A stretch of 64,000 bases of DNA, taken from Amoebophrya sp. A120. Lineage: Eukaryota > Protista > Dinoflagellata. The notes beneath the pieces are model-generated. The model was not told the DNA's origin. It did not search any database and was given only the letters and a program-made list of their open reading frames with translations. The stretch covers positions 496,001 to 560,000 of the forward strand of contig CAJINV010000020.1 of assembly GCA_905178155.1 (NCBI GenBank), in the 5' to 3' direction. Positions 449 to 63,433 of the stretch are shown here, in pieces. Numbering within the stretch: position 1 is the stretch's first letter; every line of letters starts with the position of its first letter. The position numbers and the translations under genes are program-made.

Positions 449-3400
449 TGCGACGAGTTCTTTCAACCTCAGCGCAGACGAGGTGAAAACGTACGGGAGT
501 CGGTGGTTGAGCGAGATCCCGTATCAAATGCAAATATGTCTGGGTCTGGAAGATTGCGAGATTTGTCATGCTAGTTTGGTATTATTCTGCAGTCTGTATT
601 GCGTGAGTAGGAAGACGAGCTCCTCTTGTCTGTCATGCAAAGCCGCTCTTTCTCATGCGGAATACGCAACACAGAGCCCCCACGAAAAAACCTGTCATGC
701 TTGGCGGTGCATTGCAGCGTGCTTACTATTCACCGACATGCATCACAAGTTTCCAGCAGACCCAGACATATTTGCAACGCATATCCCGATCCAGAGGAAG
801 GGGGTCCTTGGCCGCGGCGGCTGTGCGATTGTGTGGCTCGGAGCCATATGGATTGCAAAAGTGTCTGGGTCTGGAAGATTGCAACTTGTCATGCTCAATC
901 CGAATCATGCAAAAATCTGTGTTGCATGAGTGCCAAAAGCTGTCCACTTTCGACCAAGATGGGAAGGAGTTTCTCATGCAGGATACTAGGCATGACAGAG
1001 ACCTCGCCGACTTTGTCATGCTAGGTCCCGCATTCCAGACCTCAAGGGTCATGGAAAACCTGCATGACAAGTTTACACTCTTCCAGACCCACACATTTTT
1101 ACATTTGATAAGCCAGTACAGACGGACAGTTATTTGCCGTGAAGCAGGTACAATTCTAAAACAACTGATGATTTTTGTGCGCAAGCAAATTGAGTTTGGT
1201 ATACTGATCTGATCGTCCTTAAAGGCCTTCTTTATCCTCAACGTCATTACAATTTTTTGACGGGCCTTCGCTCTGTTAAGTACTTCGTGACACCACGACG
1301 TCGTTTTGTAGGGCGTTATGCGACTTCTGCTTTATTCTTTGTTCATACATACGTATTTGCAAAAAACTCTTACTGATACTGATAGATACAACGAACTCTA
1401 AGGTGAGCAAAAGCGTATTGCAGCGTGGCGAGCTGGTGCCGCAGACCGGGTCGCAGCTCCGGGGTCTACTGAAAGAAGTGAAAATTCTTCAGAAGCTGGC
1501 TGCTTCTACTTCAAGGAGCAATAAAACATCAAGTTCTACACAATCAGACGGTCAACAGCACGACTACGTATCAGCAGGAACAACCACAGCGAGCTCCTCG
1601 CGGGACGACCATGGAGATCTTCATGACCACCACATCTGTCATCTTAGGGCTTTTGTGGAAAGCCGCAGCGACCTTTGGATCGTGCTGCAGCACGGGGGTG
1701 TGCCCATCAGCCGGGAGCTGTACGAGGTGAAGGGCGAATTCCAGAACAGTGCGCGTGTCTACCGCGTACTGCACGGTCACTTGATGGAAGCTTTGAAACT
1801 ACAGGACCACCATGGAGTACTAGAGGGTAGTTCTTGCTCCTTCCACACGCTGCGCGATTTCTTGCGGCAGCTCTTGTCTGCGTTCGCGTTTCTGGAGAGG
1901 GAAAGAGTCGTGCACGCGGATGTGAAACCTGAGAACGTGCTGATCGACCCAGATATCGCATGCCAATATGTCTGGGTCTGGAAGATTGCGAGACTTGCTA
2001 TGCTAGCCTGGCATGACTTAGAACTCTGTATTGCGTGGCCGCAAAGAGCTCCTTTCGCCTGTCATGCAAAGACGCAGTTTCGCATGCGGAGTACGCAACT
2101 CACAGCCACGGAAAAACTTGTCATGCTTAGCAGCGCATTGCAGTGCGCAGCTCCCTATTCCCTTCCTTGCATCACAAGTTCCCAGACCCAGACATGTTTG
2201 CAATGCATACCAGACTGGCGGTTGCGGCTGTGCGACTTCGGCAGTGCCTACCAGGAGGGGGAAGCGGCGTCGATATTGAGAGGAAAAATCCCCCCTCCCC
2301 ATATCGAAAAGGTATGTTTCCGAAAATTTGTGTTGCTGATTTGAGGTCACAAATCACATTTGTTTTGCAAGAAGACAAACGCAGAGGCTTCCGCGCCAAT
2401 ATGGAAGCGATTTGGCATGCTGTTGGGCCTAGAGGGCAGCCGTTTGTAATGCTAAGCACCTAGACCCAAATGTCCCTCCCTAGGCTGCGGCTCTGGCTGC
2501 GATGCCGTATTGCAAGACAGCGCGGATTTGTGTACACGTAATATCCTGCGTCACAGATTTCCCATTTGATATGGGGTGGGGGCTTTTTTCATTTTGATAG
2601 TCGAGTCTGGGCACTCCTGAGTACATGGCTCCCGAGCAGTTGGATAAACAGATCCACTGGACCACGACCGGAGGCGGAGGTTTCGCCGGAGCTGCATCTT
2701 CTGTGTCCACGCCAGCAAGTCGCTTGACCGCGAAACTCTTGGGTGGAGTGGGTAGTAGTAGTACTTCTAGTGCAGCCCCCGCCGCCACCGCGGCTCTTCA
2801 CCAGCACGCATCGTCCGCAAGTGCTGGCAGTACTAGTAGACGCGGGTCGGCGGACCACTTGTCTTCTTATCATTTCGGAGCTGGAAGTGGTTCTCATCTT
2901 CCGGCTTTTAAAAGCAGCAGCACTACAACTTACACGACTAGTAAACCAAGCAGGGCGTTCTCGACGTCTCCGGAGAAGAAGATGCAGCAACTGCTGCACG
3001 AAACTAAAGAACGGCGCGGGTCCGCGAACGCGACTTCGGAGGTCGTGCAACAACAGCACCTTGAGCAGAACGAGGTCGTATCTGACAAGGTTCACGTGCG
3101 CGAGAAGTCGGACGGGTTCTCGTCCGCACTCGCGGGCGACGTTTGGTCGGCAGGAATGATCTTCCTCGAGATCTGCCACGGCGTGCCGCTGTTATCCTGT
3201 CCAAAACTGTATCGTATTCGTATATTAGATGCAAGTCTTGCATCACAAATCTTTTTCTCAAGGTAATAGAGCAGCATGATAAATTGGTAAAACAAGGAAT
3301 CAAGTTGAGGTCATGGAATCAAGTTAACTGGAATCAAGTTAGGCCTGGAATCAGGTTATATGGAATCAAGTTAAACCCGGAATCAAGTTACATGGAATCA

Positions 3401-4946
3401 AGTTACTACCTGGAATCTATCAAGTGGTGGAATGGAATCAAGTAAACCACCACAACTTCATCCCCATCAGTCTTTCGCCTCGCAATGCCTCCCCTTGGAA
3501 GAATCTAGCTGCTGCGCTTTTTGTGTTTTGTGGCTGCCACACCCTCGCGCCTAAAGTTCTCCGCTATTTTTTTTGAAAGGCGGCCACGTTCATCAAAGGC
3601 GTCTGGCTTTTCTTCCTCTGGTCGATAGAGACGTGGCGAGTAATGTTATAGCTAACCTTCGCGCGCCCGTCTTGTTTTAGGGCTCTTTGCCGAAAGTTTT
3701 CGAGGCTTTCGCCTTGCGAAGTTCCAGGGAGGGATTCCATTTGTGTCTCCTTCCCTCGGAAGGGGTGTGTCTCTGGGAATTCCGTCTTCATTTCGCCTTC
3801 CCTCGGAAGATCCATCCGTCCCTCTCGGAGTTACATTCCCGCTTCGCCTCCTCTCGGGAGACCCATTGCTCATGGGATTCCGTTTCCATTTCGCCTTCCT
3901 GGGGATGGTGTCAGTCTCGGGGGATTCCGTTTTGCCTTCCTGCGGAAGGTGTCTCGGGGGCCGCCATTTCGCCTTCCTTGCCCTCTGGTAGGTCTCTCCC
4001 TGGCGGAAGGACCGCTGCTTGATTGCCTCTTGGGGGAGTGTGAGTTGTTTATTTCCTGGCTGGCGCGAAGCTTTCGCCATCGACTCCAGATTGATGAATG
4101 GCCCGAGCTTATTGACACCTCCTGCGCGACGTGGGTGGTTCGGGGTTTTTCTGTGCCCGGGCTCGCCGAGGCGTTTTGGATTCGGCTTCGGAGCGCGCAG
4201 GTTTGCGGCTGTCCGGGGCTGTGCGCGTGTGCTTACAGCTTTTGCGCCGGGGGCCCCGGGTTTTTTCTTTTGTGTCCCGGGGCCTCGTCACATCTACGCC
4301 CCGGGGCCCCGGAACATGCATGGCCCGTCGGAAGGCAGGCCAGCCTTCGGTAAAGGTAGGGAGGCGGGGGGCCCGAAGCACAGGCTGGCGCGTGCATGGT
4401 GAATAACGTTTGGCGGTGGAGGAGATAACGGGGCCCGCGCAGTGCTTCTCGCGGAAACGGGAAACGGGACACGCAACTTGATTCTAGGACCAAACCTGAT
4501 TCCAGTCAACTTGATTCCAGAGTCCAACTTGATTCCATTTAACTTGATTCCAGTTACCAACTTGATTCCAACAATTTGACCAACTTGATTCCTTGGACGT
4601 CCAATTTCATTTCTCATGCTGAGGGAAGGGGAACTTGTATAAATGCATTTATACGAGTCTACGATGCTTTTGCATTGCATAGCTGTGGCTCTCCTACGAT
4701 TGCTGCGTCGGGACCACGCGGACGCAAGGACTTCTGGGCGCCGGGGGGCGGGACTTCCGGAAGATACGGCAAAAGCAGTCCTCGGTGGTGAAAAATCTGC
4801 GCGCGCTGTTGCAGCACCACTGCTTCGGGGTCCAGATCGGACAGAACTCCGACGCTGTGGACCTGCTCGCGGGGCTGTTGCGACCAACCGTGCCGGAGCG
4901 CCTGCGGGCGAGCGCTGCACTGCAGCACCGCTTTCTCGTTTCTTGA
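449..4946 (+). CDS. Ser/Thr protein kinase (5' end outside window), multi-exon
   Basis: Exons ~449-521, 789-846, 1116-1147, 1403-1953, 2215-2273, 2605-3192, 4687-4946 join to give kinase motifs in order: LGRGGCAIV, FAVKQ, HADVKPEN, DFG, GTPEYMAPE, DVWSAG, R..A..AL.H.F; stop TGA 4944-4946. Confidence 0.93.
522..783. mobile_element. Introner family A
   Basis: TIR tatcaaatgc.../...gcaacgcata; TSD tcccg. Confidence 0.92.
847..1110. mobile_element. Introner family A
   Basis: TIR with tgtctgggtctggaag; TSD agcca. Confidence 0.92.
1148..1402 (+). other. Canonical GT-AG intron
   Basis: CAG|gtacaa...ctctaag|GTG; AT-rich; joins FAVKQ to ORF 1403. Confidence 0.75.
1954..2209. mobile_element. Introner family A
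   Basis: TSD ccaga; splits the kinase between KPEN and DFG. Confidence 0.92.
2274..2599. mobile_element. Introner family B
   Basis: TIR tattgagaggaaaaatccccc.../...ttcattttgata; TSD gtcga. Confidence 0.92.
3193..4681. mobile_element. Introner family C with nested element
   Basis: TSD gctgt; removal gives GVPLWLSY in frame. Confidence 0.9.
3286..4602. mobile_element. Non-autonomous TIR element with GGAATCAAGTT subterminal arrays
   Basis: GG...CC ends flanked by AATT (3282-3285, 4603-4606); tandem ggaatcaagt at 3296-3443 and inverted aacttgattcc at 4475-4592. Confidence 0.75.
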
Positions 4947-5680
4947 CAGAACAGGCGAGGGCATTACTTGGTGTGCTATAAAAATGCAGCGTACAAAAAA
5001 TAATTGAAAATGGAACCTTGTTCACCAACTTCGCCTATAAATAGTTCCGATACATTTCTTGTTCTTCGCTGAGCACTCTAGTAGTGATCATGAAGCGCAC
5101 AGGTTTTATTGACATGGGTTCGCCGTAGGTCGTAGCCGGTTGATATTGTTCATCGTCAAAGTTCTCTGTCAAAACGAATTCGGCGAGAGACAAGCAATTA
5201 GGGCGTTGAAAACATCAAAATGGCAGAAGCAGAGCTATGAACGAGTACCCGCCGCGAAGATGAGAGAGAAATATTTGATACGGAGTTTCCATCGAGACAC
5301 GGAGTTGATACCATATTGATATTCTTCCTTGTCGCTGCTCACCCCGTTTTCCTTTATAAACTTAGAATCCGGTCGTGTAGTTTCTGTAGAAGTGAGATCG
5401 ACATGAAAGCGATTGTCTTGCAAAGAGCTAGAGGAGGGCCGGGGAGAGTTGGAAGAAGTCTTCTACTTCTTGTTCGGGTCTAACCCACTACGAGCAGTTG
5501 TGGCGAAGTAGAGAAGTAAGGAAAAAAGCACACGAAACAAGAAAGGTGATCGATGTGATGTCGAGCGTAAATTATAATGATCAAGCTGAATAATGATCAT
5601 GTAGGTTGATGAAGTACGTAGAGGTAGAGAGTAGGCTATTAAATCTGCATCTGTTGAACAAGTAGGAGGTGAAAAGCGGA

Positions 5681-8600
5681 ATGAAGGGGGAAAATTCATC
5701 TACGTCGAACTTCTCCCGCCGCCGCTCCGGGCGGCGGTATGGGTCGTGGCCTGCTCTTCTTGCAAAGAGTCGCGGCGGTTTCGTTCTTGCTATAGCAGCA
5801 GGCGTCGAGGACAACCAGCACTACGTCGTGCGCGCGAGAACTACTACTTCGCGGTCCTCGTCGTCGTCGTCAAGCTACAATCCGCTCGAGGTGGACCACA
5901 TGAAGATGATGATGAACAGCCAGCAGCTGGATCCGGGCACGCCTACGGCTGCGAACCCGGCGCCGCCCGGCGGCGACCACGTCCTGCTGTACGACCGGTT
6001 ATCAAAAGGAAAAATCCCCCCAACTCCCCATACAAACACGAAACTTCTAATGCTGGCTTTGGATACACAAAGACAAATCAAATTTGTGCTATGCAGTAGA
6101 GGACTGCACGCCGATCCTAAGCCTAGGTAGCAGGGGCCTTTTGGTGTAGGCCTAAGCGCCTAGCATGGTAGACGGCTACACTGTAGGCGTTACAGCATTA
6201 AAAAGCGCCTACATAGTGCGGCGGACAGCCTGGATGTGCCTTCGCGCAAGACAGGCCCGATTTGTGGCTACAAATCTGCATCGCAAGGATGCGCTTTCAA
6301 TTTTGGGAGGGGGGAACTTTCCTGGCAATACCGGTATGGTAGCCCTTACTACACCGACGCCACCTATGGTAGTGTCAGGATTGAAATCGTCAAAGTTGAA
6401 ATAGTTTGTGATGCATAAAATGCAACCCACAAAGCGCCTGTCTTGCAGAGTGGGCAAGGGAGGCAGATTGTAAGCCTGGCGAGGGGTAGAAATAAAGCTG
6501 CTGAAGTAGCATGACACAAGGCGTCACTCTTACCCAAACAGCATTACAAACTGGATTTAGACACCGCCAAAATTTGTCATGCGCCACTTAGAAACTGGGT
6601 CCTAATTGGCATCCATTTTATGCATGACAAATAATTTTAACTTTGTTGATTTCAAGCCTGACGCATCCATACCACCGACACCACGGTGGAGTCTCCCGCC
6701 AAGCTGGACGCGGGGAAGCTGGCCACCTGGGCGGCCCACCTATGAACTGCAAAACAAGTATCGTACTCGTATAAATGCATTACAAATCTCCTCAGCGTGA
6801 GAAATGAAATTTGTATATGCGGATTTAGTATTGCCTTAAGAAAAAAAATTGTAATGCATGATTGCAATGCGAGTGCGATACTTTTGCAGAGCATACCACC
6901 AGGCGCGGGACAACTTTGACCGTTTGCGGGAATCCGGCCTCGTACCGGAGGCCACGCTGGTCCGGGCGTTGGCACAAGGGATCCGCACGGCGCAGGACCT
7001 CTTTCCCTTCCGCGACATTCGCATTGTCGGCCTCGACTCGGTATGCATTGCAAATAAGTATGTCATCTACTGTGTCTGGAAGGTTGCAACTTGTGATGCT
7101 GTCTTCGGATAATTCCAAAAAAAATCTGTATTGCATGACCAGCAAGAGGAGCAACCCAGGGCGTGCTACGCGGGGAGGGCATTTCTCATGCAGAATAGGC
7201 ATCAGAAAGCCCTGCTAAAATTTGTAGGGCTAGGCCTTGCATTACAGGCATCCTGCGCCATGCAACCGGTGCATGACAAGTCTCGGAATCTTCCAGAGCC
7301 AGACACATTTGCAGTGCATACTCGGACCAAAATTTGGTCTTGTCCGTAGGGGGCCACCTCCTCACCTTTCCAGAGGAGGTTCCTCGAGTGTCCGCGAACA
7401 ACGCGACCGCGTCCTCCACCGCAGTCGCTGCCGCGGTGGAGTCTGTCGCTCTGCTTCTTTCTACCGCTGCCGCGGCGCAGACCTCCTCGCATTTGGCTCG
7501 AAGTGCGCAACCCACGTTCGATATGATAATGCAAAACTCCTCCTCCCCCTCATTTGTCATGCAAAACAGCAAATCCTCCCTGTTCCCTTTGGCACTGCTT
7601 GATGAGGTCGCCGAAAGTGCTTCCTCGCCCACCCCCCGGGGAGGGGATCCTTGACCTGTGGCGCTGGGAGCGGGTGTCCACTACATGATGATGATGATGG
7701 CACTGCTTGCATGACAAATTGAAATTTCGGAAGCCGAAACAGCATTAGAATCCATCGGTCGTGAACAATTTGTCATGCAAAGGCTGCAGTGAGGCCAGGA
7801 CTTGTGTTGCTGTTCATGCAAAAATACAAATGAGAGGGAGGGGGAGTTCTTGTGTACTGTCATATTCGACACGGCGCTGGGGGAAGGCATGTTGCTCACG
7901 CTGGTCATTCTTCTGCTCCTCGGAGTGTGCCTCGCTGTCCAGCTGCCCTATCAAATGCAAAAATGTCTGGGTCTGGAAGAATGCAAGATTTGTGATGCAG
8001 GTTGTCCATAACCCATGAGGTCTGGAATGCGAGACCCGGCATGACAGATTTTTTGAGGTCTCTATCATGCCTTTCCTGCATGAGAAACTCCCTCCCAAAT
8101 TGGTCAAAAGCGGACAGCTTTTGGTACTCACGCAACACAGATTTTTGCATCGTTCAGATTTAGCATGACAAGTTCTAACCTTCCAGACCCAGACATTTTT
8201 GCACTTGATATGCCCCTCGACGAGCTGAAACCCTACAGCGAGAAACTGGAACTGAAATTGCAGAAGGCCCTGCTCGAGATGGACCGCGGCGGCAAGGTGC
8301 AGGCCATTCCGGACGACGAGCGGCCGGACCTGAACCCACTGGTGTACACGTATCACCAGTTCATTATCCTAGGCAAAAACGTCCCCACGACCCCTTAGTC
8401 AAGATGGAAAATCTGCTAGACAAATCCACAGCCTTGTTTGGGGCGACTGGCGCATAACAAGTTTTGGGACGCAGTATCTATAATGGTCCTGTGTGTGTAG
8501 GTTGTACTAGCCCAGACATCACATCACAAATCCAGTCTCTGATCCTGGTTCACGCATGACAGATTTTTACCAAGAAACACGATTCAGAAAACGTTGCCCG

Positions 8601-9762
8601 CCAACATGCGGAGCCGCATTACGGATTTTTTTGCATATGCAGATTTGCATAACAACTCTGGGGACGATTTTATTCCCTGAGGATATTGGTGCTGGAAAAG
8701 CTAGTCACGAACGCGAAGGAGGGATCAAATGCAAAAATGTCTGGGTCTGGAAGATAATTGCGAGATTTGTCATGCTTGTCTGGCATGACCAAATAAAGTT
8801 TGTGATGCGTGTCCACGAAGAGACCCTTTTGCCTGTCATGCAAAAACGCAGTTTGTCATGCGAAAAACGCAACACATATTTCTCATCATGCTTGGCTGTG
8901 CATTACAGAGCATGCACTATTCCCAACGCAGCACTACAAGTTGCCAGACCCAGATATTTGTGCATTTGATAGGAGGTGAGAGCGGAGCAAGAGGCCTACT
9001 TCGAGCAACTGCGGCAGAAGGAGGCAGAGCGCAATATGGCGTTCTCAATTGTTACATTCTCAACTGTTACATAAATTTGTGATGCAAGAATGGTAACAGC
9101 AAAATTCGGCGCAGATTCCCATGCTGTTTGGCCCTTCCAAAATTTGTCATGCGAGGCAGCTTCACTGTGTGGACGTTGATGCTCATTTTGCATGAGAAAT
9201 CACGTAACAGTTGAGAATGTGACATTTGAGAACGCCATACGCAAGCGGCGCAAAGAGGAGGCAAGGCAGGCCAGGCTGGCCGCCCGCCGCGCGGCTGGGG
9301 AAGTATCGTAAGGAAAAACCCCACCTCCCCATATGATCGAAAAGGCATCCTTTTGGAAAATTGTGATGCTGATTTGTGGTCACAAATCAGGTCTGTCTTG
9401 CAAGAGAGCAAAGCCAGAGCTTCCGCCCCTTTATTAAGTACGCAGGCGATTTGTAAGAACGCAGCTGCGCCAACAGTGCAGACGTCTGCCAACATGCTGA
9501 GCGCTCACCTCTAGCCAGCCCCTTCCCGGCTTTGTATCTGCCTGCAGTCCTAATATACTGCAAGAGAAATAAGCTGATTCGTGTACGCGAATCCCGCAAG
9601 ACAGATTGCCACTGTGATGATATAGGGAGGGGGAATAGTTTTTCCTTTCGATAGGAAGGAGAGACAGGGGACGACCCGTTTGCGACAAGCAGTAGCAGTT
9701 CTTCCTCCAGTTCTGCCGACTCATCGGACGAGTCTTCAAACGAAGAGCAGCAGTCTCCTTAG
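5681..9762 (+). CDS. Hypothetical membrane protein (~409 aa), 10 introner introns
   Basis: Exons 5681-5999, 6336-6364, 6677-6740, 6901-7041, 7326-7521, 7870-7948, 8216-8364, 8691-8722, 8977-9034, 9245-9303, 9659-9762 sum to 1230 nt, open throughout; one hydrophobic segment (MLLTLVILLLLGVCLAV) then a charged coiled-coil-like tail. Start codon uncertain. Confidence 0.82.
6000..6330. mobile_element. Introner family B
   Basis: TSD ccggt; TAT...ATA ends. Confidence 0.92.
6365..6671. mobile_element. Introner family D
   Basis: TIR tatggtagtgtcaggattgaaatcgtcaaagtt; TSD ccacc. Confidence 0.92.
6741..6895. mobile_element. Introner family C
   Basis: TIR with tgcaaaa..gtatcg; TSD ccacc. Confidence 0.92.
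7042..7320. mobile_element. Introner family A
   Basis: TSD ctcgg. Confidence 0.9.
7522..7864. mobile_element. Introner family E
   Basis: TIR tatgataatgcaaaactcctcctccccctcatttg; TSD ttcga. Confidence 0.9.
7949..8210. mobile_element. Introner family A
   Basis: TSD tgccc; interior is opposite in orientation to 847-1110. Confidence 0.92.
8365..8685. mobile_element. Introner family G
   Basis: TIR tatcctaggcaaaaacgtcccc; imperfect TSD ttcat/ttggt. Confidence 0.85.
8723..8971. mobile_element. Introner family A
   Basis: TSD ggagg; first base G instead of T. Confidence 0.9.
9035..9239. mobile_element. Introner family F
   Basis: TIR tatggcgttctcaa.tgttacattctcaactgttac; TSD cgcaa. Confidence 0.92.
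9304..9653. mobile_element. Introner family B
   Basis: TSD ggaag. Confidence 0.9.
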
Positions 9763-11008
9763 AAGATGCGGGTCACTCTTCACGAACCTTGCAGCTGGTC
9801 GTGCAAGAGGCAGTACAGGATCCTGCACCGGTCTACAGCTGCCTTGCTTTTATTTGATCATTATGTGACTAGTTCTAGTTGATCATGACCAAATTAAATA
9901 ATACCGACCGCCGGTGACGTTGAATGTACACAAGTACTTGCACGCAAGAACGAAGACGAGAACGAGGAGCTATCACTCTAAAAGTACTCTGCTCTAGTTT
10001 GGTTTGTCGTAGTCCGATGGACATGGATTCGATAGAGATAAAGTATTGCAATCCATTTGGCACAAATCGAAATCGAGGTCATCTGACAAAGAAAGTGGAA
10101 GTTGCAAAAAAGCCTGGGACGCCGCTGCTGGTCGTGTTCAGCATCTTCACTGCGACTGCTCCACTTAATAATTGCCCAGCATAAAAAATTCGATAAATAC
10201 TTGATCATACACTCACACTTAAATGCACCTGATTTTATTTCATGCACATGATGATCGGTGAAAATGGATCGAGACTTCTTCTTGTTGTCTCGTCATTTTT
10301 TATAGGCGTCTTCGTGTCCGTGTTTCGTTCTATAATTTCCCTTGATCATCTACATCTGCAGCCAAAGATGAATCTTCCACCATCCAGCCCATGCATGGCT
10401 GCAGGTGTCACTAAGTAGTACTTACCTTCATTGAAAGAAACTCAAACTGCCGCGTCTTCACTCCTGTCAGGACAAACTACATGCAAACTTTATTTTATTG
10501 CGAGTGTGTCAGTCTTTCTCTTTCACTAACGACGCACCTGTAGTTGACTTGGACTTGGTGCCCCACAAGAACGAACCCTCTGTTGACATATTCAAGGCTC
10601 TTTCTGCAGCTACTTCGAGAAGTGAAGAAAAAAATATTCTTTTCCGCACCTTCCCGTTCTGCCGCGTTGTCGTTTGTGTGTTTTTAATATTCGAGCAGCC
10701 TCCCAGTAGATGAATCGTGAGGCCGGTTGCTTTGGCTGACTCCAATTGTGTTGAGCAGGTCGGTTTTCACTTATTTTCGCTAATAAAATGGATGTGATAA
10801 TCAATGGGGCCCGGCCGCTTCTTTGAGTTTTCGCTTTTAGGCTGGTGCTGACACTTTTCTTTTATATTAAAACCCAACTTTTGCAGCCCTGCCCCTGCTG
10901 ACTAAGGCACACCACGTAGAGAGACATGTTGAACAGCAGGAGATCGACAGTACGAGCAGTCGTGTACTAAAACTCGGGCAGATATCCTCGAAGAATATTA
11001 TCAATACC

Positions 11009-44106: not shown

Positions 44107-44674
44107 GCCCTACTAGAAACCTCCCCTAAGGGGAGATTTCTGGGAGTACTCAAATAATTTCTGGCGCGAAGATGAACTGGGGCACTACACGCGAGTCCGA
44201 AATTTTCTCTCTCTAGTGCGGTCCTCCTGTTAATATGCGACTTTTCTCGCAGTTCAGGATACTACCATTGACACTCGGAGCGAAGCCGCAACAGATACCA
44301 AAGCATGCTTGATCATCTTTTTCCGTACATAAAGTGTTCGTTACTACCAAATAAGTACTAGCACTGGCTCCATGTTGGGGGTTATGCCGATCATCATACG
44401 TGAACGTCGTGAAAACGCAATTATGCAGCTCTAGATCTACCAAGCTGTAATTGCATTGGAAAGTTCTCCTGTGGTGCGATCTGTACGGACACGATGATAA
44501 TTTTCAGACCTGCACGTGAGATGATGATGACCCCTGTCGAACTCTTTGTGAAACTAATTGCCCACCGTCTGCAGCTCAAAGTTTCGATCTGTTACTGCTT
44601 GATGATCCTGTTCTTGCAACTATCACATAGATGCAGATCTTGAGGCATCATGTCTGTGAGTATGTTTATCCGGG

Positions 44675-49800: not shown

Positions 49801-51541
49801 TAGGCACTTAGCATGGGGAACGCCTATGCTCTAGGACCAACAGCATGACAAACCGCCTGCATAATGGGTCGGAGCCCATGCCGTTGCTTTCTTGCAAGAC
49901 AGACGATTTGTGGTCACAAATCAGCATTGCAAATTTTCTGAGACGTTCCTTTTCGATATGGGGACGAGGGGGGATGTTTCCTTACGATACACGGACCCGT
50001 CGGCCATGAGCGAGGAGTACGACGAGGTGCTCAACCGGCTGGTCAAAGAGGTGGTGAAGCACGTGCGCCCGCTCGCCCTCGGGGGCACCACGGTCCGCGA
50101 ATCCTGGCAGCTGGTGGATTTTATGCGCAATTCCCTGATCAAAGACTGCGCCAACGACGACGCGTTTCCGAACATCCCCCAGGGCGCCAAGGCCATCCAG
50201 GAGGCCTCGCAACAGAAGCTGCGACAGGAGCTGGAGGCGCTGGTGCACACCTGGTACCAGGCGGAGATCGCGCCGCACGGGGTATTTCTGGACGACGCGG
50301 AACTCGAGAAGAAGATCGAGACCGCGATCGGGCAGGCGCGCGCGCAGTGGGACGCCAAGGTCTTTGTGTACGACCAAAGCGCGGCGGAGCAAGCCTGGGC
50401 GGACCTGGTGATGAACCTGCAGGACCGGCAGTTCGCCGGGATGCGCAAGCAGAACGCGGACGCGAAAAAAATGCTGTTCCAGAACGACCTGATCGCATTC
50501 AAGCAGTCTGGCTCCGCGCTGTCGCAGGACGGAAAATATGGATTGCAAAAATGTCTGGGTCTAGAAACTTGTAATGCTGCGTTGGGATTAATGATTGCTC
50601 TGTAATGCAAAGCCAAGCATGAGAAATATCTGCGCTTCTTCGTGTTGCGTTTTTCGCATGAGAAACTGCGTTTTTGCATGACAGGAAAAAGGGTCTCTTC
50701 TTGGACACGCATCACAAACTTTTTTCTCATGCCAGACAAGCATGACAAATCTCGCAATCTTCCAGACCCAGACAATTTTGCATTTGATAGAAAGTTCGAC
50801 GTTGGCAACGGGGACTCCTGGCCGCAAGACAAAAACATGCGGGTGCAGTTGGGCCAAGGCGGGAAGGAGTCCGGTCCGGGCGAGTACACGGGTCAGAACG
50901 TGCAGATCGAAGAGCTGGGCAGCGCCCGGTTTCGGGCGGAGTGTCAGGAGGAAATGCAACAGCAGCTGGTGGCGAAATGGGAGAAGCAGGGACCATATGC
51001 ATTGCAAATGTATCGCACTAGTAGTAATCGCATTTACAAATTGGCTCAGCATGACAAATGGAATTTGTGATGCTGTTTTGCCTTGGGATGGAGATTTGTA
51101 ATGGTGCATGGCTGCGGTTACTACGAGTGCGATGCTTTTGCACAGGATAGGCCAGAATTTTTCGCGCCCAAGGACCGGAAATCTGTTACCAAATGCAAAT
51201 ATGTCTGGGTCTGGAAGATAATGCAGGTTTTGCATGACCAAGAGTGTCTGACATGCAGGACCAGCGTCACAGGTTCTTCGAGGGCGTCACGATGCCTACT
51301 CTGCATGAGAAAATTGTCATGCAGGTTTTCCATGACCCATGAGGTCTGGCATGAAGGACATAGCAGGAGAGATTCTGTGAGAGTTCTACCATGCCTATCC
51401 TGCATGAGAAACTGCCTCTCGATTAGGTCAATTGCGTCTCCGCATGACACATTGCGTCTCCGCATGCAGCAGTTTTGTATTGTGTTCCGACCATGTGTCC
51501 TAGATCCTCTCCTCATGCGTCCTTCTAGATCTGCGCGCGCT

Positions 51542-51577
<36 letters not shown>

Positions 51578-53422: not shown

Positions 53423-54382
53423 ATCATGATAATTTACTATTAGCGCCTGTTGTATACCTCCTCTACCGATCAGTTTTCAGTACAGCAGCTACTGTGCGAC
53501 CACGTACAGCTAGGTCTCCGGATGTCGGGCACAAACCAAAGGTAGCTGTGGTCGTATTTGATATGGTTCAGCGGTAGAACGGTATTGATATAAACGTTTT
53601 TGTTCAGATTTTTTGCGAATATCAGACGAACAAAATGTAAATGATATAGAAGTGTCACCTCCAACGAAGAATTTTTCTGGAGGGACGTCGCTGATCTAGT
53701 TGCACATAGAAAATTTTTGTTGTAACATCAATATGTTTCAAATTACGCCGTAGAATAAGAACTTTGTAGAAACAACTAGAAATATTACCCTTGTACATTT
53801 AGATTGATAGCGTAGGAATAAGCTACAAACTCACCAGTCTTCTTTCTTTGTTGTCTCTGTACGATTCACTGATGGAACAAGAAAGGACTAGAACTAGTAC
53901 GCGCTCTATAGTGTCGTGTCGAGGAAAAGTCGTTTCACGAACCCTGCTGCCGGGAAGCATGGGCGGATGGATCGAAGGGGAGCTGCACTCAGGTTTTTGA
54001 GTCCACCTTCCCCCGATCATATGTCTCTCATCTTCGCTGTGTTGAGGTGGAAATAACGAGATAGATCGGTTGTACTTTTCAGAATTGCACAACTACAACA
54101 TCCATGCCAAATGAAGATGACGCAGACAGATGAAGAAAAGTTTGTGCTGACAAACATACTGGTCGTGCTTCGCACTCAAGCAAACTTCTTTTATTTCGTT
54201 TTCTGTGTTCGTGGAAAGACATGACAAGGAAGAGAGAGATATCGTAGTTGTTGTTTTTGTTGAACTAGTGTTTTTTTTGTTCGCTCACATGAGGATCAGA
54301 AACTGAAGGTCTTTGGTCTCCCCACTGAATTATGTACGTCAATCGTTCATCAAAAGATTTTTTGTGTGCATGTTTTCTGGAG

Positions 54383-57300
54383 ATCCAGATTTCCTCCACT
54401 CGTTCGGTTACTGCTTTCATCGAAGCGTATGATTTACAGCTTGGACGCCCATTAGATATAGGGGCGGCGAATTTCCAGTGATTTTAGAGGTGGCGCACAA
54501 TTGGGGGGCTGCTCTTTCGGGTATTAGTGGTTCGTGGGGCAAGGGCTAGCAAAAATAGAGGCGATGGCAACACTGTGCTCGTCATTATCGCTCCATTACA
54601 TTGATGGCCATCCCCCTCCGCGCAACGCCCAAGCCACCACATCTGATTTCTTGTTTTTTCGCAAAGGGATTCATTTGATGGCTTCAGGATTTTCTCCTTT
54701 CCTTCTTAACCCTTCAACTTCCGTGTCCCAATTTTGGGCAACAAAAATCGCACAAAAACAGCACTTCCATCGGGAAAGGCTTCCATTCAAACATCAATCA
54801 CCATGGTGTGACGAAGATGACTTTTTTGCTAAAAATCATCGATGCGGAGTGCCGTGCTGTTTCTTTGGCGCCAAAAAGCAGGTTAAAAGCACCCCCTTTC
54901 CCGATGGTGTGCTGCGATCGGTGAATTTAGCGGTGAGTTTAGAAATGGGCGGCCGGTGAATTTAGGAAATGGTGGCCGGTGAATTTAGCTTCCCGCCCCC
55001 CACCTGATTCTGGATTCCCGGCCGCCACAAAACAAGCATCCATCTTGCCCTTCATTTCTAAATTCACCGGACCCAAAAAATCTGATCCAGAACAATGGCC
55101 GTCGCATTTGCTCAAGAAAGTGCCAAACCTTTGGAGCATGCGCGCACAAATACGAAACGACCGAAATTCTATTGCGTCTTAAGGTCGCGCGAAAAATCAA
55201 ATTAATGCCAAACAGCTGTTAAACAAACCCTCGATATCTTGGCTGCCAAACAGCTGTTAACCGCCCAGGAGATACAACAACATCGAGAGAAGACGAGCAG
55301 AACGAAGCAGCATCTCCCGGAGTTATCGCATATCCCCATCTTCTTGCATTATTGTCCAACGGTATTGATCAAGCGGGAGCGCGACCGTGAAGGGCAGGCA
55401 CTAGAAGACAGGACGCGGGGCCTGGTATTACAACATCGCTGCCGAGGACTCCAGGAATTCGCGCCATTCTTCGGGGGGTTCGCGAACTTCATCTATGAAT
55501 TCCACGACATCGACCCGCTCGCTGAGTTGATCATTGCCAGACCTACGCACAGGAAGGATCCTTGTCGGTAGTGATCGAAACAATAACGCTCTCCCAGTGC
55601 GGGAGAAGAGCGGAGACCTCATTTCTTCCGGGCCCGCCACAACGCGCTGTGGTTGAAGCACGCACACCGGCAGCAGCTCCTGACGTACAGGGTATCGCCT
55701 GACTACTACCATCTGGAACAGCGGACAGCTATACAGGACCCCGAGGTAGGAAGAACCGAGTCCGCGCAGCGGACCTAGAGCAACAGTGTGAAGCGGCAAG
55801 GAAAGTAGGCCGCAGCTTCCCACCCGAACGCAGGTGACGGAAACACCAGACACAGCCCCCAGAGGCGCGTTTGCCTCCAGACACGACCGGGCGACTCTTT
55901 GATGCCGAGGGCGCAACCCGGAGACGCAGTGAAATTGGAGCACGCCGCTGGGTCTGAAGACGAGCGGCGGAGGCTATACGCCGGCGCACATTCCGGCTTG
56001 CCGGGTTACATCTTTAGCCCCCAGATCCTGTTTCCATGTGTACATGTTTTCTGGAGATCCAGACTTCCTCCACTCGTTCGGTTACTGCTTTCATCGAACA
56101 AAGAGAGAAAAAGCGCGCAACACGAATAGAAGCGCGGAGGCCTGTTTGTTTTGGGGCGGGCAAATCGGCGCAGATGATAGCGAGAATTTGCGGCAAAATC
56201 CGGGGCCCATCATGTTGCGCTGGCTGGCACGCGGCTGCTTTGAGGGCGGAGGGCACACCACTCGAAAAGACCCCCAAGCGGCCGCGTGGCGCCGTCAGCT
56301 CGCCTACCCCTGCAGCCGAGGGGGGCTTTGCATTTGGGCGCGCGCCCCGGTCGCACAGCCGAGAAAACATCGAGGCCACTGGCAACACCTAAAAACGCCT
56401 GCGCCAAAACCCGGGCCCGACCCGAGGACTTCCGCCCAATCTAATCCCAGAAGCACAGCGACAGCGCTGCTCGCGATGTTTGGCGCGCCGGGCCCAGGCT
56501 GTGTTTCCATGTGGGTGGCTGGCGCCTGACTTGCCAGCCATAAGGGCGCAACGCCTCTGCGCAAACACATCCTCCGGGCCTGGGGACCTGATTTTCGAGT
56601 GGCCACAGGCAAGTGCCAAGCGAGGCAGCCGGAAGGCAAAAGGCCCAGTCAGTCGGAGAGGCCCGGGGCGGTGAAGTCGACTAAATGTTTTCTATATTTT
56701 GCGGGATTTTTGAAAAATGAAAAGAACGGGGATCGCGGCGCTGCCTGCGGCGCCACGGTTGGCAGGGACGCCATGCGTCCGGGCACCGCGGGGGTTCAGG
56801 CGCATTGCCTCCCGTCCGTGTGCCCGGCGGCAGTGTTTTCCCCCTGGTGTTCTCGCGTTGCCTTGCGAAAAAATTAAAATTTAAAAATTGGCAGCGTTTT
56901 GAGTGGTATTGCGTGTGCTAGGAGTTTCCCAATCCCGCAGCCTCTTGGGTTCCTCTGTGTTCATTTCCGATCGCACACACCGGGGAAGGTGTGCGTGGTG
57001 GGTTGTCCGTATTCTGCCTCCCGGGCGTGAGGTTGTTTCCAACATCGCGCTGACTTTCGTGAGTCAGTGCGATTTTGGGAAGGGGTTGGGATATGTTTGA
57101 GTTGTCCGTCGGAAGGAAAGGTCGTGGGGCTTCGCGACCGACCTTCGGCAAGATCCGCGGTCGGGGTCGCGCAACGACCTTTCCTGCGGGAAACCACCTT
57201 CCGGACCATTTCCGTTTTGATTTAGAGTCACCGGGGGGTGCATTTTCGGGAACGATTCCTGTGTTTTCGGGAATTTCGCCCGGTTTCGGGGTGGTCTGCT

Positions 57301-59519
57301 AAACCGTTTCCCCGCACGGTTTAGCAGGTTCATTTAGCATGCTGATTTAGCCTGCGACTTAGCATGCTGATTTAGCATGCCAGATAGCGTGGCACTTAGA
57401 GCCCCCATGTAGCACCCCCATTTAGCGCCCCCATTTAAAGGGGTGCGATTTAGAGCCCCCATTTAGCACCCCCATTTAGAAGGGGTCGATTTAGAGCCCC
57501 CATTTAGCACCCCCATTTAGAAGGGCTCGATTTAGAGCCCCCATTTAGCACCCCCATTTAGAGTGCCATTTAGAGCGCTTTTGGGCAGGTGCCCACCTCG
57601 TCTGCGAAATCGGCCCCATGATTTGCTTCTCCCCACCCCGCAACGCTTCTCCGGGTTTTTCCCCACCCGCAGTGCGCAGGGGGCCGCGCCGGAGTTTCTC
57701 CTATGTCTTCTTTTCCTCGGTCCCACACCATTTGCCTCTGTGTTCCCCATTTCGTCTTTGCCTTTTTCCTTCTCGCCCCTTTTCAAGTGAGGCGCCGTTC
57801 GCATATTCCCCGGGAAGGCCGTTTTTGAAAAATCCCGCAAAATTTAGAAGCGATTTAGCAGCCACCACCGCCCCGGCCCCTCCGCCTGAGCCCAGAACCT
57901 TCCGAAGGCCGAAGAGCGGGGCACTTGGTTGGGGCCGCGCCAATGGCACGGTAACAAACATTGCCCGGGGCGCAACAGATTTGGGCGACTGGGCCGCCCT
58001 GTGTGCATGCGCCCCTTTCCGGGCCAGAGCTTTCCGGGCTTGCCTTTGTCCGGTTATTAGACACAGGGCAGTGGTTGCACGGCCTCCAGTGCCAGGTGAC
58101 GTGCGGCGCGCGCAACTAGAACCCAAGGGGCCGGATCTGTCTCGGCCCGCTCCACAGGCTTTGAAAGGCCGAGGGCGCTTCTTCTAGAAGAGGCCTACGG
58201 AGGCCCCTCCGACAGGCCCCCCAAAATGGTGCCTCTTCGAAGGCCTTCCACGATGGTATGAGGCCTGCCGGGATGCCCCCCAAACAGGCCCCCCCGGAAG
58301 GCCGAATGGCCGGGGCCTTTGCCTTCTGGTGCACCTTTTAGGGCAGCCGCCCCCGATGCCCCAGTCTCATCGCGGGAGCCGGCCCGCCGGGCCCGCGCTC
58401 GCAACTGCCCGCACCGGATGATCCACGGACCGCCCGAAGCCATAGGGTGGCTGAATTAGGCTACGCGGGATCGGGGGCGAGGAAGCCTTTTTGCGTGGTC
58501 CTACTGACTGCGCACCCGGAAGCCCCCGCGCGCTGCCGGCGTGCAGCAAGGTCTGCATGGTCGGGGCTGTCCTGGGGCTTCGGCGCTAATGCTGCTAAAG
58601 CAGGCGCGATGGGGCAGCCCGAAAAAATAGCGCGAGCTCCTTCCGGCTCGCAGGGCCGGCAAGGCAGGTCGGATGATGGGCAAACCCCCGCGGCCGGAGG
58701 AACTGGCCCAGCGCATGCCATTCCCTCTGGCAATAAGCCCGCCGGGCAGTTCCGCCCTTCCGGAAAAATATGGCCCGGGACTGTCCGCTGTGGTGAGGCC
58801 AACACCGGGAACAACAGCGGTGGCGCTCCAGCAGCCGAGGGGTTGCGGGCCTTTACCACTATCGCCGCCCAGGTCTAGTTGTTTGTGAGGGCCGGAATCT
58901 GTTGCAAAATCTGAGCAGAAGGAGGCCCCCCGAGATCAATTATGCCAACAACGAGACACATATCGGGCCCGGGATGGGGCGGAGCGCTCCGCGCGGTCCC
59001 GGGGGGAAGCGGCTAGTCGCATCCGGGGCCCTCTTTGTTTTTGCGCTTTTACGAGCTAGACATTGTGCGGGGGCTCGGAGTTGCAAGCTTTTTGCCTCGG
59101 CGAAATCAGAACCCTAGAAGACCCCGGGGACTAGAAAAGTCATGGCGGCTGGCGCCAGCGCATCTTTACCAGTAGCTTTACTCGCGCTGCGCTTTTGGTT
59201 TGAGATCGCGCAGAGGCCCCACAGAACTTGGGCGGCCCTTTGGTTGCTATGCCGAAAAATAAGGAGCCAGTTGAATTGCCCGGCTGTGGCCACGACCTCG
59301 GTTTTGCGCCGGGCCTTGATTTCAGACCGGGGCGGTGTGGTTCATTCGGAGCATGTTTACGCCACATTAACCAAAAGAGGCACGATATGTGCGCAAAATA
59401 GTTCTTGCTTTTCTATGCTGATGAAAATTTTTAATTCAGCGCACAATTATTCATCTTTTCGCGCCATAATCCAGATTTCCTCCACTCGTTCGGTTACTGC
59501 TTTCATCGAAGCGTATGAT
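54383..59519. mobile_element. ~5-kb insertion bounded by identical 51-bp direct repeats
   Basis: 54383-54433 equals 59469-59519; third copy at 56037-56098; GC-rich interior with no recognisable ORF. Confidence 0.55.
57330..57578. repeat. ATTTAG-based tandem array (~41-bp unit)
   Basis: Repeated gatttagagcccccatttagcacccccatttagaagggg. Confidence 0.85.
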
Positions 59520-59523
59520 GTAG

Positions 59524-59766
59524 ATGCTTCGGAATTTATTTCCGCGAATAACAGCTGATGCTGATGCTGATCTCCAGCAAGAACTACAGAGGTATAATCT
59601 ACAAGTTGTTCCTTCCTCTACATCTAGTACGCATAGAAGTCATTTGGCAAGCCAAAGTGTCGAGCAGTGGGCAACTTTCGTCAAGATTATTGTCGTCCCC
59701 ATCGTGATCGTTTTGTGTGTGTACTTCTCTGTGAAACTACGTAAACCTCTAATGGAGGTAAAGTAA
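59524..59766 (+). CDS. Possible small membrane protein or upstream exon
   Basis: 80-aa ORF with hydrophobic FVKIIVVPIVIVLCVYFSV; I could not splice it in frame to the downstream gene. Confidence 0.35.
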   Translation: MLRNLFPRITADADADLQQELQRYNLQVVPSSTSSTHRSHLASQSVEQWATFVKIIVVPIVIVLCVYFSVKLRKPLMEVK

Positions 59767-59886
59767 AAGTTTTTGAAGTACTAGGTGTCCTCTTGTGCCA
59801 CTTGTTTGATCTTGTCCCAACAACTCCAAGCCTAAGAAAAGTAAAACACTCCTGCTACAGTCGCTGGAGAAGTAGATCCACTTCGC

Positions 59887-62800
59887 ATGACTTCTTCCTC
59901 GTTTAGTTGTCTGCCACTGAAGCCCGGCGACCACCTGATCAAAGAGGACCACGGGGGCCGCGTTACGCATGCTCTATTTTGTATGGAAGCGTCAGGTTTG
60001 AAATCGTCAAAGTTGAAACAATTTGTAATGCATGAAATGCATGGCCTTGGCCTTGGCCCGAGGTACGTGTGTTGCAGAGCAGGCAAGTGAGGCCGATTGT
60101 AAGCCTGTTTGGGGTTACAGCTCGAGCTGCTAAAGTAGCATGAGAAAATCACTCTTCTTTACCTAAACAGCATGACAAACTGGATTTAGGGACCACCGAA
60201 ATTTGTCATGCGCCACTTGGAAACTGGGTTCCAACTGGCATCCATTTGATGCATGCCAAATTATTTCAACTTTGTCGATTTCAACTCTGACACATCCATA
60301 TTTTGCGGGCAGGCCAGCTTGCGAGCGGGGGACGGCAGCAGTTACAACTTGCAGCACAACAAGTTCAGAACCACGACTGGTGGTTCTACAGTCGCAACGA
60401 AAGAGGTGGACACAAAGGTTGTAGGTAGTCAGGAAGAACTGGTATGGCATTCGCAAACGTTCCATTCTTGTTCCCATGTGTCAGATTGTTTCTTGTATGG
60501 TCGCTGGGACCACGGAGCTACCGCAATTCGTCCTTTGTTTGCCACTGTTGACTTCCATGCTTTTTCTTCTGGCGTTTGAAACTTGATTGTTGTCGTCACA
60601 AATGATGATGGCAAAGGCAAGAACTAGAACAGTTGCGACGGCCATAACAGGAGGAAGACACTTTTTTGCAGGACTGCTGTCCGGAGCTGGAGCATTTTGT
60701 CGTTTTTTTGAAGCAAGTGGACTCCTCTACTGTGGCCGTGTGGAAGCAGACGCTGAGGGAATGGTGCCAAGACTTTCAATTTGCGGCTGCGTCGCCGATT
60801 TTCATGGGGGGTCAACATGTCAGAACAACCGGCGAGGACCACCCCGAGGTCGTGATGCGGGGGTCGTTATCGGGAGATGAAAGACATTCTATTTCTCCAA
60901 CAGGAGAAATAGCAGTTGCTGATGAAGCAGCAGCAGGCAGCTCTTCTATAATACCGCAAGAAGTTCAAGATGAGCTTGACAAAGAACACCGCAACAGCGA
61001 CGGCTTCGTTCCGACGGACCTCTCTGTGAAAGAAGAGATAAGACATGATATGCAAAACCAAGACCAGCTCTCGGGGGTGAATGATTCTACCGAGTCAAGA
61101 CGTGGTAACGAAAACGAGCAGCCTGCGGAAGTGAATACTAGGGAGCCCCCTTCATCTGGTAGCCTGCAAAACAAAAATCCTCGACCATCACCAGGGAAGA
61201 TTTTTATACCGGAGGAACCAGGAGAAGTAGACCAGGACCGCACAGCACCTCCCGTGGTCACGACCTTTCCCTCTGTTGGCCTAGACGAGAAAGCTGAATC
61301 ATTCGACCCTGAAGTATCAAATGTAAAAATGTCTGCGTCTGGAAGAATGCAACTTGTAATGCTGTCTGCGGATTCTAAAAATATCTGCGTTGCATGAGCA
61401 GCATGAGGAGTGAGTTCTTGGCACGCGGAGAGGGCATTTCTCATGCGTAATTAGCATCAAGAAGCTCTCACGGGTCATGCAAAATGTGCATGACAAGCAC
61501 AAGTCCAAACTCTTCCAGACCCAGACATTTTTGCATTTGATATGAAGAGACGACGAACAACAAGCCGAACGACCTCTCGACCACCCGGCTCGTGAGCGTG
61601 CGGTTCTACCTGAATCGTCCGTTTTCGCGGCGGCGCGCGGTGTACGTGGCCTTGCGCGCGCTGACGGAAACGCCGCGCATCAAGCTGCACGCCAGCCTGG
61701 TGCGCGAGGTGTTGGAGTCCGACGTGTTTCCCTGGCACTGCCTCTTCCAGGACGAGGCCCCCGCCTTTGACCCGGGCGTGGCCCTGTCGCACATGAAGGC
61801 GAAGCGGTACCGGCGACAGCCCTACCAGGAGGGCTTTGTCAGCGAGAACCTGCTGGAGAGTCTGCAGCAGGGCACGGTCCTCATGTCCCACGGGGCCGTG
61901 GTGGTGCGCGGGGCGCGGATCGCGCGCTTGTTGCGGTTCTCGACCGCGGCGGTGGGGAGCTGGGGCCGGCTCGGGGCGCTCATGGGCGCGAAGTTATCCG
62001 AACGTATCTTCACGCAGGACTCGCCGCGGAGCGCCGGGGCCGCCGCCGCGGGAAGCTGGATTGGGTATAAGTACTTACTCTCACAGCTCGTATGGGTGGC
62101 AATTTAAATTCTGCAACACATTGCGGTTCGTCGTCTATCGAACCTTCTATGTACAATTTCAGGATCAGGTCACCTGTACTCGAGGCCGTGTTCTTGTTTT
62201 GTTGATAAGTAGTTTTTGGAAGCCACGTTGTCGTTGAAACACGATTTGACGAAAACGAAAATCGAAACCAATTCTCCAGTTCTGTGGCTGGCGCGAGCCT
62301 TGGCGCGAGCGTTGCCTCCACGACCGGCACAGCGGCCGCCGCGAGCTACAGCGCCACCGCGTCCGCGCACTTTGGGGCCGCGGCGTACACTATCGAATGC
62401 AAATATGTCTGGGTCTGGAAACTTGTGATGCTGAATGGTCGTGATTGACTGCGCCTCAAAGTGCAGTATAGCATGACAAATGTTTCATACGCTTTGTCAT
62501 GCGCAGAACGCATTACAAACTGCGCTTTCATTGCATGACGAAATTCTGGCGCTTTATTTGCTGCTTATGCATTACAGATTTTCATTACGAATGCGAAACA
62601 TCCAATACAGGTTCAACCTTTCCAGACCCAGACACACTTGCATTTGATATACACGCTCGGGGCGGTGGAGGGCGGGTCGATCGCCACCAGCATCTATCAA
62701 ATGCAAATATCCCTGGATCATGTCTGGAAGGATGCAACTTGTCATGCTGTCCTTGGATTCGAAAAAAATCTGTATTGCGTAAGCACCAAAGAGGCATCTA

Positions 62801-63433
62801 CTTCATGAGGCCCTGCCTCAGAAAATCTGTGATGCTACCGCATACATCACAGACGTCATGGGTCATACAAAAGCTGCATGACAAGTCTTCCCATCTTCCA
62901 GACCTCCAGACACATTTGCATTTGATAGCATCCTTGCCGCCACGTCGCTGGGGGCGGCCGGGGCCGTGGTTGGCGCGGGTATCCTCTGCAAAAGTAGCGT
63001 ATTCGTATTGCAATCATGCATTACAAATCTTTTTGTTAAGTCAAATCCGCATTACAAATTTTCTTTCTCATGCGGAGGGAATTTGTAATGCATTTATACG
63101 AGTACGATACTTTTGCAGTGTATAGCGGGCGCGGCGCTGCTGATCAAGAACCACCTGCTCGCGCACGAGGCCGGTAAAGCAGACCGGACGAGCCAGTACT
63201 TGGAATCCGCTCTACACCTGTTCGAGGACTCCCAGGATCCGTTTGGGCACCTGGACGTCATCCTGGGCTTCGACGATGTGGAAGAAAATCGTCAAGCCGC
63301 GCCGAACACCAGTACAACTAGCGAAACTTCCGCTCCTCCGCAAGTGGCGCTGGGCTGGTACGCGATACCCATTTCGCCCGCGGAAGCTGAACGGAGCCAC
63401 AACACAGGGGCAGCTGCACAACCTGGTGGTTGA
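59887..63433 (+). CDS. LRAT/NlpC-P60-like domain protein (~630 aa) with Gly/Ala-rich hydrophobic region
   Basis: Exons 59887-59981, 60306-60441, 60672-61314, 61548-62064, 62280-62390, 62655-62694, 62933-62979, 63130-63433 sum to 1893 nt. LKPGDHL...THALFCG resembles the LRAT N-terminus; glycine-zipper-like GAAGAVVGAG. Start uncertain. Confidence 0.72.
59982..60300. mobile_element. Introner family D
   Basis: TSD ttttg. Confidence 0.92.
60442..60671 (+). other. Canonical GT-AG intron
   Basis: CTG|gtatgg...ttttttgcag|GAC. Confidence 0.7.
61315..61542. mobile_element. Introner family A
   Basis: TSD tgaag. Confidence 0.92.
62065..62279 (+). other. Canonical GT-AG intron
   Basis: GG|gtataag...ttctccag|T. 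Confidence 0.7.
62391..62649. mobile_element. Introner family A
   Basis: TSD tacac. Confidence 0.92.
62695..62927. mobile_element. Introner family A
   Basis: TSD gcatc. Confidence 0.92.
62980..63124. mobile_element. Introner family C (145 bp, shortest in window)
   Basis: TSD gcggg. Confidence 0.92.

Follow-up and report, generated by a model that had tools for sequence, protein, structure and literature searches.

The 64,000-nucleotide stretch of Amoebophrya sp. A120 analysed here (contig CAJINV010000020.1, positions 496,001 to 560,000; hereafter the window) is crowded with elements of 110-400 bp that start with TAT, end in ATA and are flanked by a 5-bp duplication, which fits the introners described from this organism. 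Across 13 families with unrelated inverted repeats, a short motif, here called the box, appears to be almost the only internal sequence that these elements have in common, and it recurs within them at a preferred spacing. Judging from the sequence, the boxes are probably subterminal-type binding sites on duplex DNA for one trans-acting protein that mobilises all 13 families. We infer this protein, its binding and its chemistry alike; the candidate would be a transposase or its cofactor.

The ends, the boundary repeat, the non-canonical junctions and the multitude of families all agree with what has been reported for A120 introners of 110-330 bp (Farhat et al. 2021, PMC7789003; Gozashti et al. 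2025, PMC12130899; here and below, published work is cited from parts of the papers and their supplements). The published description is TAT, seven looser bases and an A-stretch, with a short direct repeat (3-5 nt) at the boundary and non-canonical junctions (PMC7789003). Here the ends read TAT, seven looser bases and at least three A, families D and F being without the A-stretch, and A occupies positions 11-13 at frequencies of 0.86-0.92 (866 ends), TAT itself being a requirement of the search. The elements also have the properties of miniature inverted-repeat transposable elements (MITEs), in that they are short, carry inverted repeats and a duplication, lack coding capacity and exist in many copies. 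Their end pattern had no match in the viral and prokaryote collections, and Rfam returned no match within the window.

A search independent of the box motif returned 433 distinct elements, 40 of them from the window, and no false positives in 8 shuffled windows. The second sample consisted of metagenome contigs scanned with the family A end pattern, which yielded 150 loci (734,593 bases, overlaps included) that represent one other assembly and have no long match to the window. Owing to this search pattern family A is over-represented (204/433), and statistics are therefore family-weighted or drawn with one element per family or lineage. Clustering of the ends gave 13 families with 429 assigned elements and left four unassigned; families H, J, K, M and N have a common layout, look related and were counted as a single lineage, which makes nine lineages. 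The duplication is a perfect 5-mer in 363/433 elements and has one mismatch in 70/433 (four of five being the search requirement); the sixth flanking base matches at chance level (0.21-0.23). Positions 4-7 of the inverted repeat vary in all families and are no more complementary between the two ends than between random partners, in family I even less so; the outer hairpin is thus imperfect just inside TAT.

The decamer YTTGTVATGC, to which a first-pass annotation of the window had drawn attention, occurs there 105 times in exact form, where 1.16 matches are expected. All but four of these lie within element-homologous DNA (101/105, in 13,660 of the 64,000 bases); of the four, three belong to the large insert at 22175-35873 and one to an element that had been masked only in part. 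De novo motif discovery arrived at the same sequence, with TGTCATGC as the commonest internal 8-mer, and refinement gave the box consensus YYTG(T/C)(C/A/G)(A/T)TGC, or YYTGTSATGC in short. Boxes reach 20.5 per kb in elements (280 in 13,660 bases) versus 1.0 per kb elsewhere (49 in 50,340), the latter being background. In the window and the second assembly together, 428/429 family-assigned elements have at least one box (mean 5.2), 416/429 have at least three, and 377/429 have a box within 62 bp of both ends; boxes stand on both strands and are spread through the interior, mostly on one strand in family G. To the annotation's statement that all carry the motif there is one exception in the window, a box-less element (60443-60646). 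Masking the boxes reduces cross-family BLAST pairs from 668 to 3, a drop to which the loss of power through masking also contributes. The literature searched on A120 introners (the text of PMC7789003, PMC12130899 and PMC11282704, as distinct from logos in supplement figures) describes termini and hairpins, whereas an internal motif or spacing rule is not mentioned; the 8-mer has no match in the passages and supplement text of PMC7789003 that were searched, nor does the word 'subterminal' in the parts of PMC12130899. The box array thus is apparently an undescribed feature of a known class of elements.

The boxes are also placed with some regularity. Measured at the box centre (the decamer starts six bases before it), the first box from each of 858 element ends falls at 28-35 in 8 cases, 36-40 in 184, 41-44 in 43, 45-50 in 461, 51-56 in 64, 57-62 in 41 and beyond 62 in 55; two ends have no box. 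There are thus peaks at 37-38 and 45-50, 8-11 bp apart, and a third group near 57-60, which correspond to decamer starts at +31/32, +39-44 and about +54. All seven first copies that had been listed by eye (885, 6405, 9076, 48809, 7553, 48409 and 15209) are boxes, at offsets of +39, +41, +42, +43, +32, +31 and +31, respectively, with 48809, 48409 and 15209 being variants of the exact decamer. The idea that each family has its own fixed offset did not survive, as family A uses both main offsets. In family I the first box lies inverted at these two offsets, a hint that position counts for more than orientation. The most constant feature is a pair of boxes on the same strand 31-32 bp apart, present in 44-100% of copies in 12/13 families compared with 3-12% for random placement, often with an inverted weak box 14-15 bp past the first box. 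This module of three helical turns can be regarded as established. A single-period model with one orientation shift fits best at 10.4 bp (mean cosine 0.37, versus 0.09 at 11.0), is positive in 13/13 families and gives a median p of 0.005, the floor of the test, when positions are jittered with one element per family; neither the use of a plain regular expression nor the omission of family A moves the optimum, and the window alone gives 10.6-10.7 with a different orientation shift. The shortest convergent distance per lineage (R 0.82 at 10.4-10.5) was not counted as support, with 6/9 lineages at 44-47 and a resampling median p of 0.11.

Four results point away from a role of the box in RNA. The variable box positions at the two ends of an element are no more complementary than those of random partners (family A position 4: 0.29 versus 0.45). 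Copies of the asymmetric family G stand in the two orientations relative to inferred transcription 9 and 8 times (a transcription strand was inferred for 316/433 elements). The third result is the 10.4-bp period, and the fourth concerns decay. Private divergence is lower in box cores (0.028) than in other internal DNA (0.063) at baseline (376 copies), and in 98 older copies, older meaning that the duplication is mismatched, it rises by 0.010 and 0.012, respectively (95% interval of the difference -0.009 to 0.014); three neighbours were available for 474/490 pooled elements, and the pool holds 24 copies with 3-of-5 duplications, among which some ends may be mispaired. Low baseline divergence combined with equal decay with age is what one would expect were boxes selected in those copies that transpose and free to change afterwards. 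The non-complementary ends, the occurrence in both orientations and the equal decay together favour sites for transposition on duplex DNA, in the manner of the subterminal repeats of hAT or pogo elements, over a splicing signal.

A mechanism of the following kind would account for the array. Several copies of the protein, spaced by three turns, would sit on a single face of the helix and could assemble an end complex, which from there would span the 30-55 bp to the TAT terminus. The stretch of the inverted repeat that differs between families (+16 to +28) would be of less importance to the protein, and for that reason one factor could act on families whose inverted repeats are unrelated. The copies that transpose again, rather than every inserted copy, would be the ones in which the box is under selection, and splicing, guided by the termini, would be a process apart. 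Of the functions ascribed to the decamer by the first-pass annotation, a binding site for one trans-acting factor is thus supported by a single motif over unrelated end families and by a duplex-like geometry (31-32 bp, and 10.4 rather than 11), whereas the 'true excision signal' is plausible as DNA excision during transposition and doubtful as splicing, given that boxes decay like other DNA.

The splicing of these elements can be followed in contigs of one sample that we presume to be RNA. At non-canonical sites, 25 elements are removed together with 5 nt, as seen in 12 junctions directly, in 3 cases by piece arithmetic and in 10 by summed length. Further contigs of this sample match the window into element ends without differences, and a raw-read run, whose 220 partial reads all fell on element DNA, was uninformative. 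The position of the cut is narrowed by five junctions in which the duplication is mismatched, and the only register allowed by all 12 junctions (window 46989-63124) lies 4 nt into the duplication, 1 nt before TAT and 4 nt after ATA. If one register holds, the intron would be N-TAT...ATA-NNNN, with a donor N-T-A-T-(C/G), which resembles GTAT except that its first base is free, and an arbitrary acceptor dinucleotide. This register agrees with the predominant A120 donor sites in Table S4 of PMC7789003, where T is always second, and with the family 1 donors of PMC12130899, of which 892/1322 are GT, CT, AT or TT; within the duplication there is no enrichment of G or AG at the relevant places. Exact removal is also seen for elements that start with TAG (52821) or TAC (51187), so splicing does not require the third base. 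A decayed, box-less family F element is spliced and can be read as a canonical GT...AG intron (60442-60650), one copy of its duplication having changed; this marks a possible route from introner to ordinary intron.

Several observations weigh against a mobilising protein that reads phased boxes. With a single element drawn from each lineage, the trough between the two main offsets falls short of significance (median p 0.08), and together with the third group this leaves of the two offsets one turn apart, as originally proposed, the two peaks but not their exclusiveness. All spacings taken together fit 10.4 bp; however, once the second member of each 31-32 bp pair is dropped the median p is 0.14, the signal between modules (peak 10.5) has a p of 0.096, and neither divergent box pairs nor element lengths (p 0.46) have a period. 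The periodicity hence rests largely on the 31-32 bp module, which family F has in only 12% of copies and which may have been inherited from one ancestor rather than evolved repeatedly; helical phasing beyond the module is suggestive. Intervals in the decay test are wide, and since the boxes are redundant any selection for splicing would escape it. Moreover, the sole box-less element of the window is the one with GT...AG sites, as a splicing role predicts, and in predicted RNA folds of 91 elements box positions are paired more often than others (0.75 versus 0.61), with other boxes making up 54% of their partners. Finally, no transposase or autonomous element was found among 9 long end-matched candidates (~0.8 Mb, overlaps included), where the Pfam scan covered two open reading frames (ORFs) and seven candidates were judged by their longest ORF alone, three of these seven having 3-of-5 duplications and so maybe mispaired ends; in the parts of PMC7789003 cited here, no putative transposase is reported in A120.

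It is conceivable, though in our view unlikely, that the box array instead marks an element for splicing, with a host factor recruiting a spliceosome without U1 that cuts 1 nt before TAT and 4 nt after ATA. Such a factor could bind DNA during transcription or the nascent RNA, and could even be the mobilising protein itself. Besides the box-less GT...AG element, this would suit the presence of boxes in every other scored element tested against the putative RNA, the failure to detect U1 small nuclear RNA in A25 and A120 (PMC7789003), the reverse strand of the box, whose GCATGAC may be loosely branch-point-like, and the exact removal of elements with kilobase inserts, which implies that recognition is local to the ends. 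Yet boxes in older copies decay as other internal DNA does, asymmetric families have no orientation bias, and a 10.4-bp period is not expected of single-stranded RNA. Nor are copies with GT...AG in register (6/316) significantly poor in boxes (relative density 0.79 versus 0.99, p 0.24, driven by the one box-less case), a GT donor alone (95 copies, p 0.95) or an AG acceptor alone (26, p 0.28) has no effect, and the canonical intron at 47682-48257 is devoid of strong boxes.

That the boxes are ancestral inverted-repeat modules, kept because they form transcript stems that join the two ends, with no sequence-specific protein involved, we consider improbable. The pairing of boxes with boxes in predicted folds, the inverted weak box often found within the tandem module, 7-8 nt past the first box, and the common layout of families H, J, K, M and N would suit this reading. 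But any complementary sequence would serve for a stem, and still the box sequence is fixed across families that have ceased to align in the rest of their DNA; the variable positions are not kept complementary, family G has its boxes mostly on one strand, and the best-conserved distance is a same-strand spacing, which is irrelevant to pairing. Very improbable, to our mind, is a host chromatin or DNA-bending protein that binds the box and thereby gives access to genes or escape from silencing, while a separate enzyme reads TAT and the A-tract. Helical phasing, with a T-tract alternating with GC half a turn apart, might suit a protein that bends or wraps DNA, and no transposase is known in A120; boxes at background level outside elements would, on the other hand, leave such a protein few host sites.

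Introners also harbour later insertions of 0.3-13.5 kb (3193-4681, 16529-17122, 18800-20952, 22175-35873, 51187-52762 and, in the second assembly, 505-1608 of locus L017), and 3193-4681 and 51187-52762 are still removed exactly. The insert at 3287-4602, within a family I element, has a 12-bp repeat array of its own, inverted between its ends, and no box; it is a second type of repeat-array element. As an autonomous parent of the introners, L017 505-1608 was rejected because it contains a repeat insert, and the 13.7-kb element of the window because its ORF at 23416-27081 is non-long-terminal-repeat (non-LTR)-retrotransposon-like, with an endonuclease domain (Pfam PF14529) typical of that class, and is no candidate mobiliser. 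A second ORF of this element (29681-32560, 959 codons) has no Pfam match, and the retrotransposon-like region is apparently interrupted by a tandem-repeat block at ~27300-29650. Elsewhere, a ~45-bp sequence in three copies, located by eye at ~54380, 56057 and 59470, brackets a 5-kb box-free intergenic stretch and suggests nested insertions of another element.

Table 1. Introner elements of the window. Offsets are decamer starts counted from the element end; 'skipped' lengths equal element length plus 5 nt and, like all removals, refer to the putative RNA contigs.
Positions	Strand	Element	Boxes and removal
1..63124		~55 TAT...ATA introners (40 strict; others partial, degenerate or with inserts)	box arrays on both strands
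847..1110		family A	boxes start at 885 (+39) and ~916 (+31 further); mirrored 1062-1071
1954..2209	+	family A	removed with 5 nt (piece arithmetic)
2274..2599	+	family C (B type of the first-pass annotation)	first boxes ~+54 and +43; removed with 5 nt
3193..4681	+	family I, 1.3-kb box-free insert	removed whole with 5 nt
6000..9653	+	ten elements in one gene	each removed with 5 nt, leaving exactly 808 nt, as in one contig
6000..9653, part 1	+	C 6000-6330, D 6365-6671, I 6741-6895, A 7042-7320, E 7522-7864	
6000..9653, part 2	+	A 7949-8210, G 8365-8685, A 8723-8971, F 9035-9239, C 9304-9653	
6405..6414	+	first box of D element	+41
7553..7562	+	first box of E element	+32
9076..9085	+	first box of F element	+42
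11962..18602	+	element cluster in one long gene	
11962..18602, part 1	+	C 11962-12289, A 12522-12882, G 13035-13316, I 13626-13800, C 14058-14387	
11962..18602, part 2	+	C 14463-14767, A 14859-15136, H 15179-15393, degenerate C ~15415-15714 (ends read directly from the sequence), D 15830-16227	
11962..18602, part 3	+	A 16529-17122 (with insert; ends read directly from the sequence), A 17250-17528, A 17698-17967, A 18341-18602	
15209..15218	+	first box of H element	+31; triad of box, inverted weak box and box at +31
18800..20952		family C, 1.8-kb tandem-repeat insert	
21805..22125		family F, one terminus altered	
22175..35873		family I ends around 13.5-kb secondary insertion	
36218..36478	+	family A	
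42404..43929		five elements: A 42404-42671, I 42764-42937, E 43011-43238, F 43379-43623, A 43688-43929	
46989..47224	+	family F	241 nt skipped
48379..48663	+	family G	first box 48409 (+31); boxes mostly on one strand; 290 nt skipped
48767..49088	+	family C	first box 48809 (+43); 327 nt skipped
49668..49989	+	family C	327 nt skipped
50537..50789	+	family A	first box +32 at one end, +41 at the other; mismatched duplication puts the cut at most 4 nt into the duplication
50996..51149	+	family I	159 nt skipped
51187..52762	+	family A, TAC start, 1.2-kb insert	1581 nt skipped
52821..53094	+	degenerate family E, TAG start	279 nt skipped; cut at least 4 nt into the duplication
59982..60300	+	family D	324 nt skipped
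60443..60646	+	box-less family F	209 nt skipped; readable as GT...AG intron 60442-60650
61315..61542	+	family A	233 nt skipped
62391..62927		family A pair: 62391-62649, 62695-62927	first box of 62391-62649 at +32
62980..63124	+	family I	first strong box inverted at +39 (63018-63027); 150 nt skipped

The published work cited here treats both the mobility of Amoebophrya introners and their splicing in the absence of GT-AG sites or U1 as open questions. A motif common to all families would turn the about two thousand reported families into one system, and the box offers both a concrete bait for finding the protein and, through its pattern, a way to the autonomous parent, to be sought as a long element bounded by TAT...ATA that bears phased boxes at either end. 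Because the cut register is single, the question of splicing can be put to the test base by base. A bolder proposition, to which we can give little credence, is that one protein outside the known transposase superfamilies binds phased boxes in tens of thousands of introners, mobilises all families whatever their inverted repeats and also marks their DNA for exact removal by a U1-less spliceosome; if true, this would constitute a system of intron definition at the DNA level common to transposition and splicing.

Among known systems, the recombination signal sequences (RSS) and Transib transposons, to which the arrangement of end, spacer and box had originally been likened, resemble introners in their 5-bp duplication and in a conserved terminus with a second block at a set distance (PMC1131882). 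However, they have a CAC heptamer and an A-rich nonamer at 12/23 and pair unlike spacers, whereas introners end in TAT, carry about five interior boxes and obey no 12/23 rule, because end pairs of the same offset class are common (124/204 copies in family A, 9/11 in D, 3/3 in O); the likeness was thus abandoned. The Ginger2/TDD elements TDD-4 and TDD-5 make 5-bp duplications as well, with Ginger termini reading TGTNR and not TAT (PMC2836005), and no integrase-like ORF was found in the introner elements examined. In hAT elements the third terminal position is G, where introners have T. Membership in Transib, Ginger and hAT was rejected since the termini do not fit. The nearest published lead on the mobiliser may be A120 family 38, which is filed as 'Ginger, 5-bp TSD, TA/TA termini' (TSD, target-site duplication), most families being filed as 'TIR DNA, Unknown' (TIR, terminal inverted repeat) in rows 1-56 of the 58 A120 rows of supplementary file 8 of PMC12130899.

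The closest parallels in architecture are the MITE Emigrant with Lemi1 (PMC1636448) and the hAT element Hermes (PMC10368747), which likewise contain several short repeats in their interior, oriented both ways, and in which the protein-DNA complex depends on how many there are and how they are arranged; in Emigrant/Lemi1 the transposase binds the oriented subterminal repeats (PMC1636448). Introners have the hallmarks of such a subterminal array, namely a repeated, oriented internal motif in a conserved arrangement, to which a transposase may bind. They differ from both systems in that one motif extends over 13 families with unrelated inverted repeats and through the whole element, in that the box is not a copy of part of a family-specific repeat, and in that introners are also spliced.

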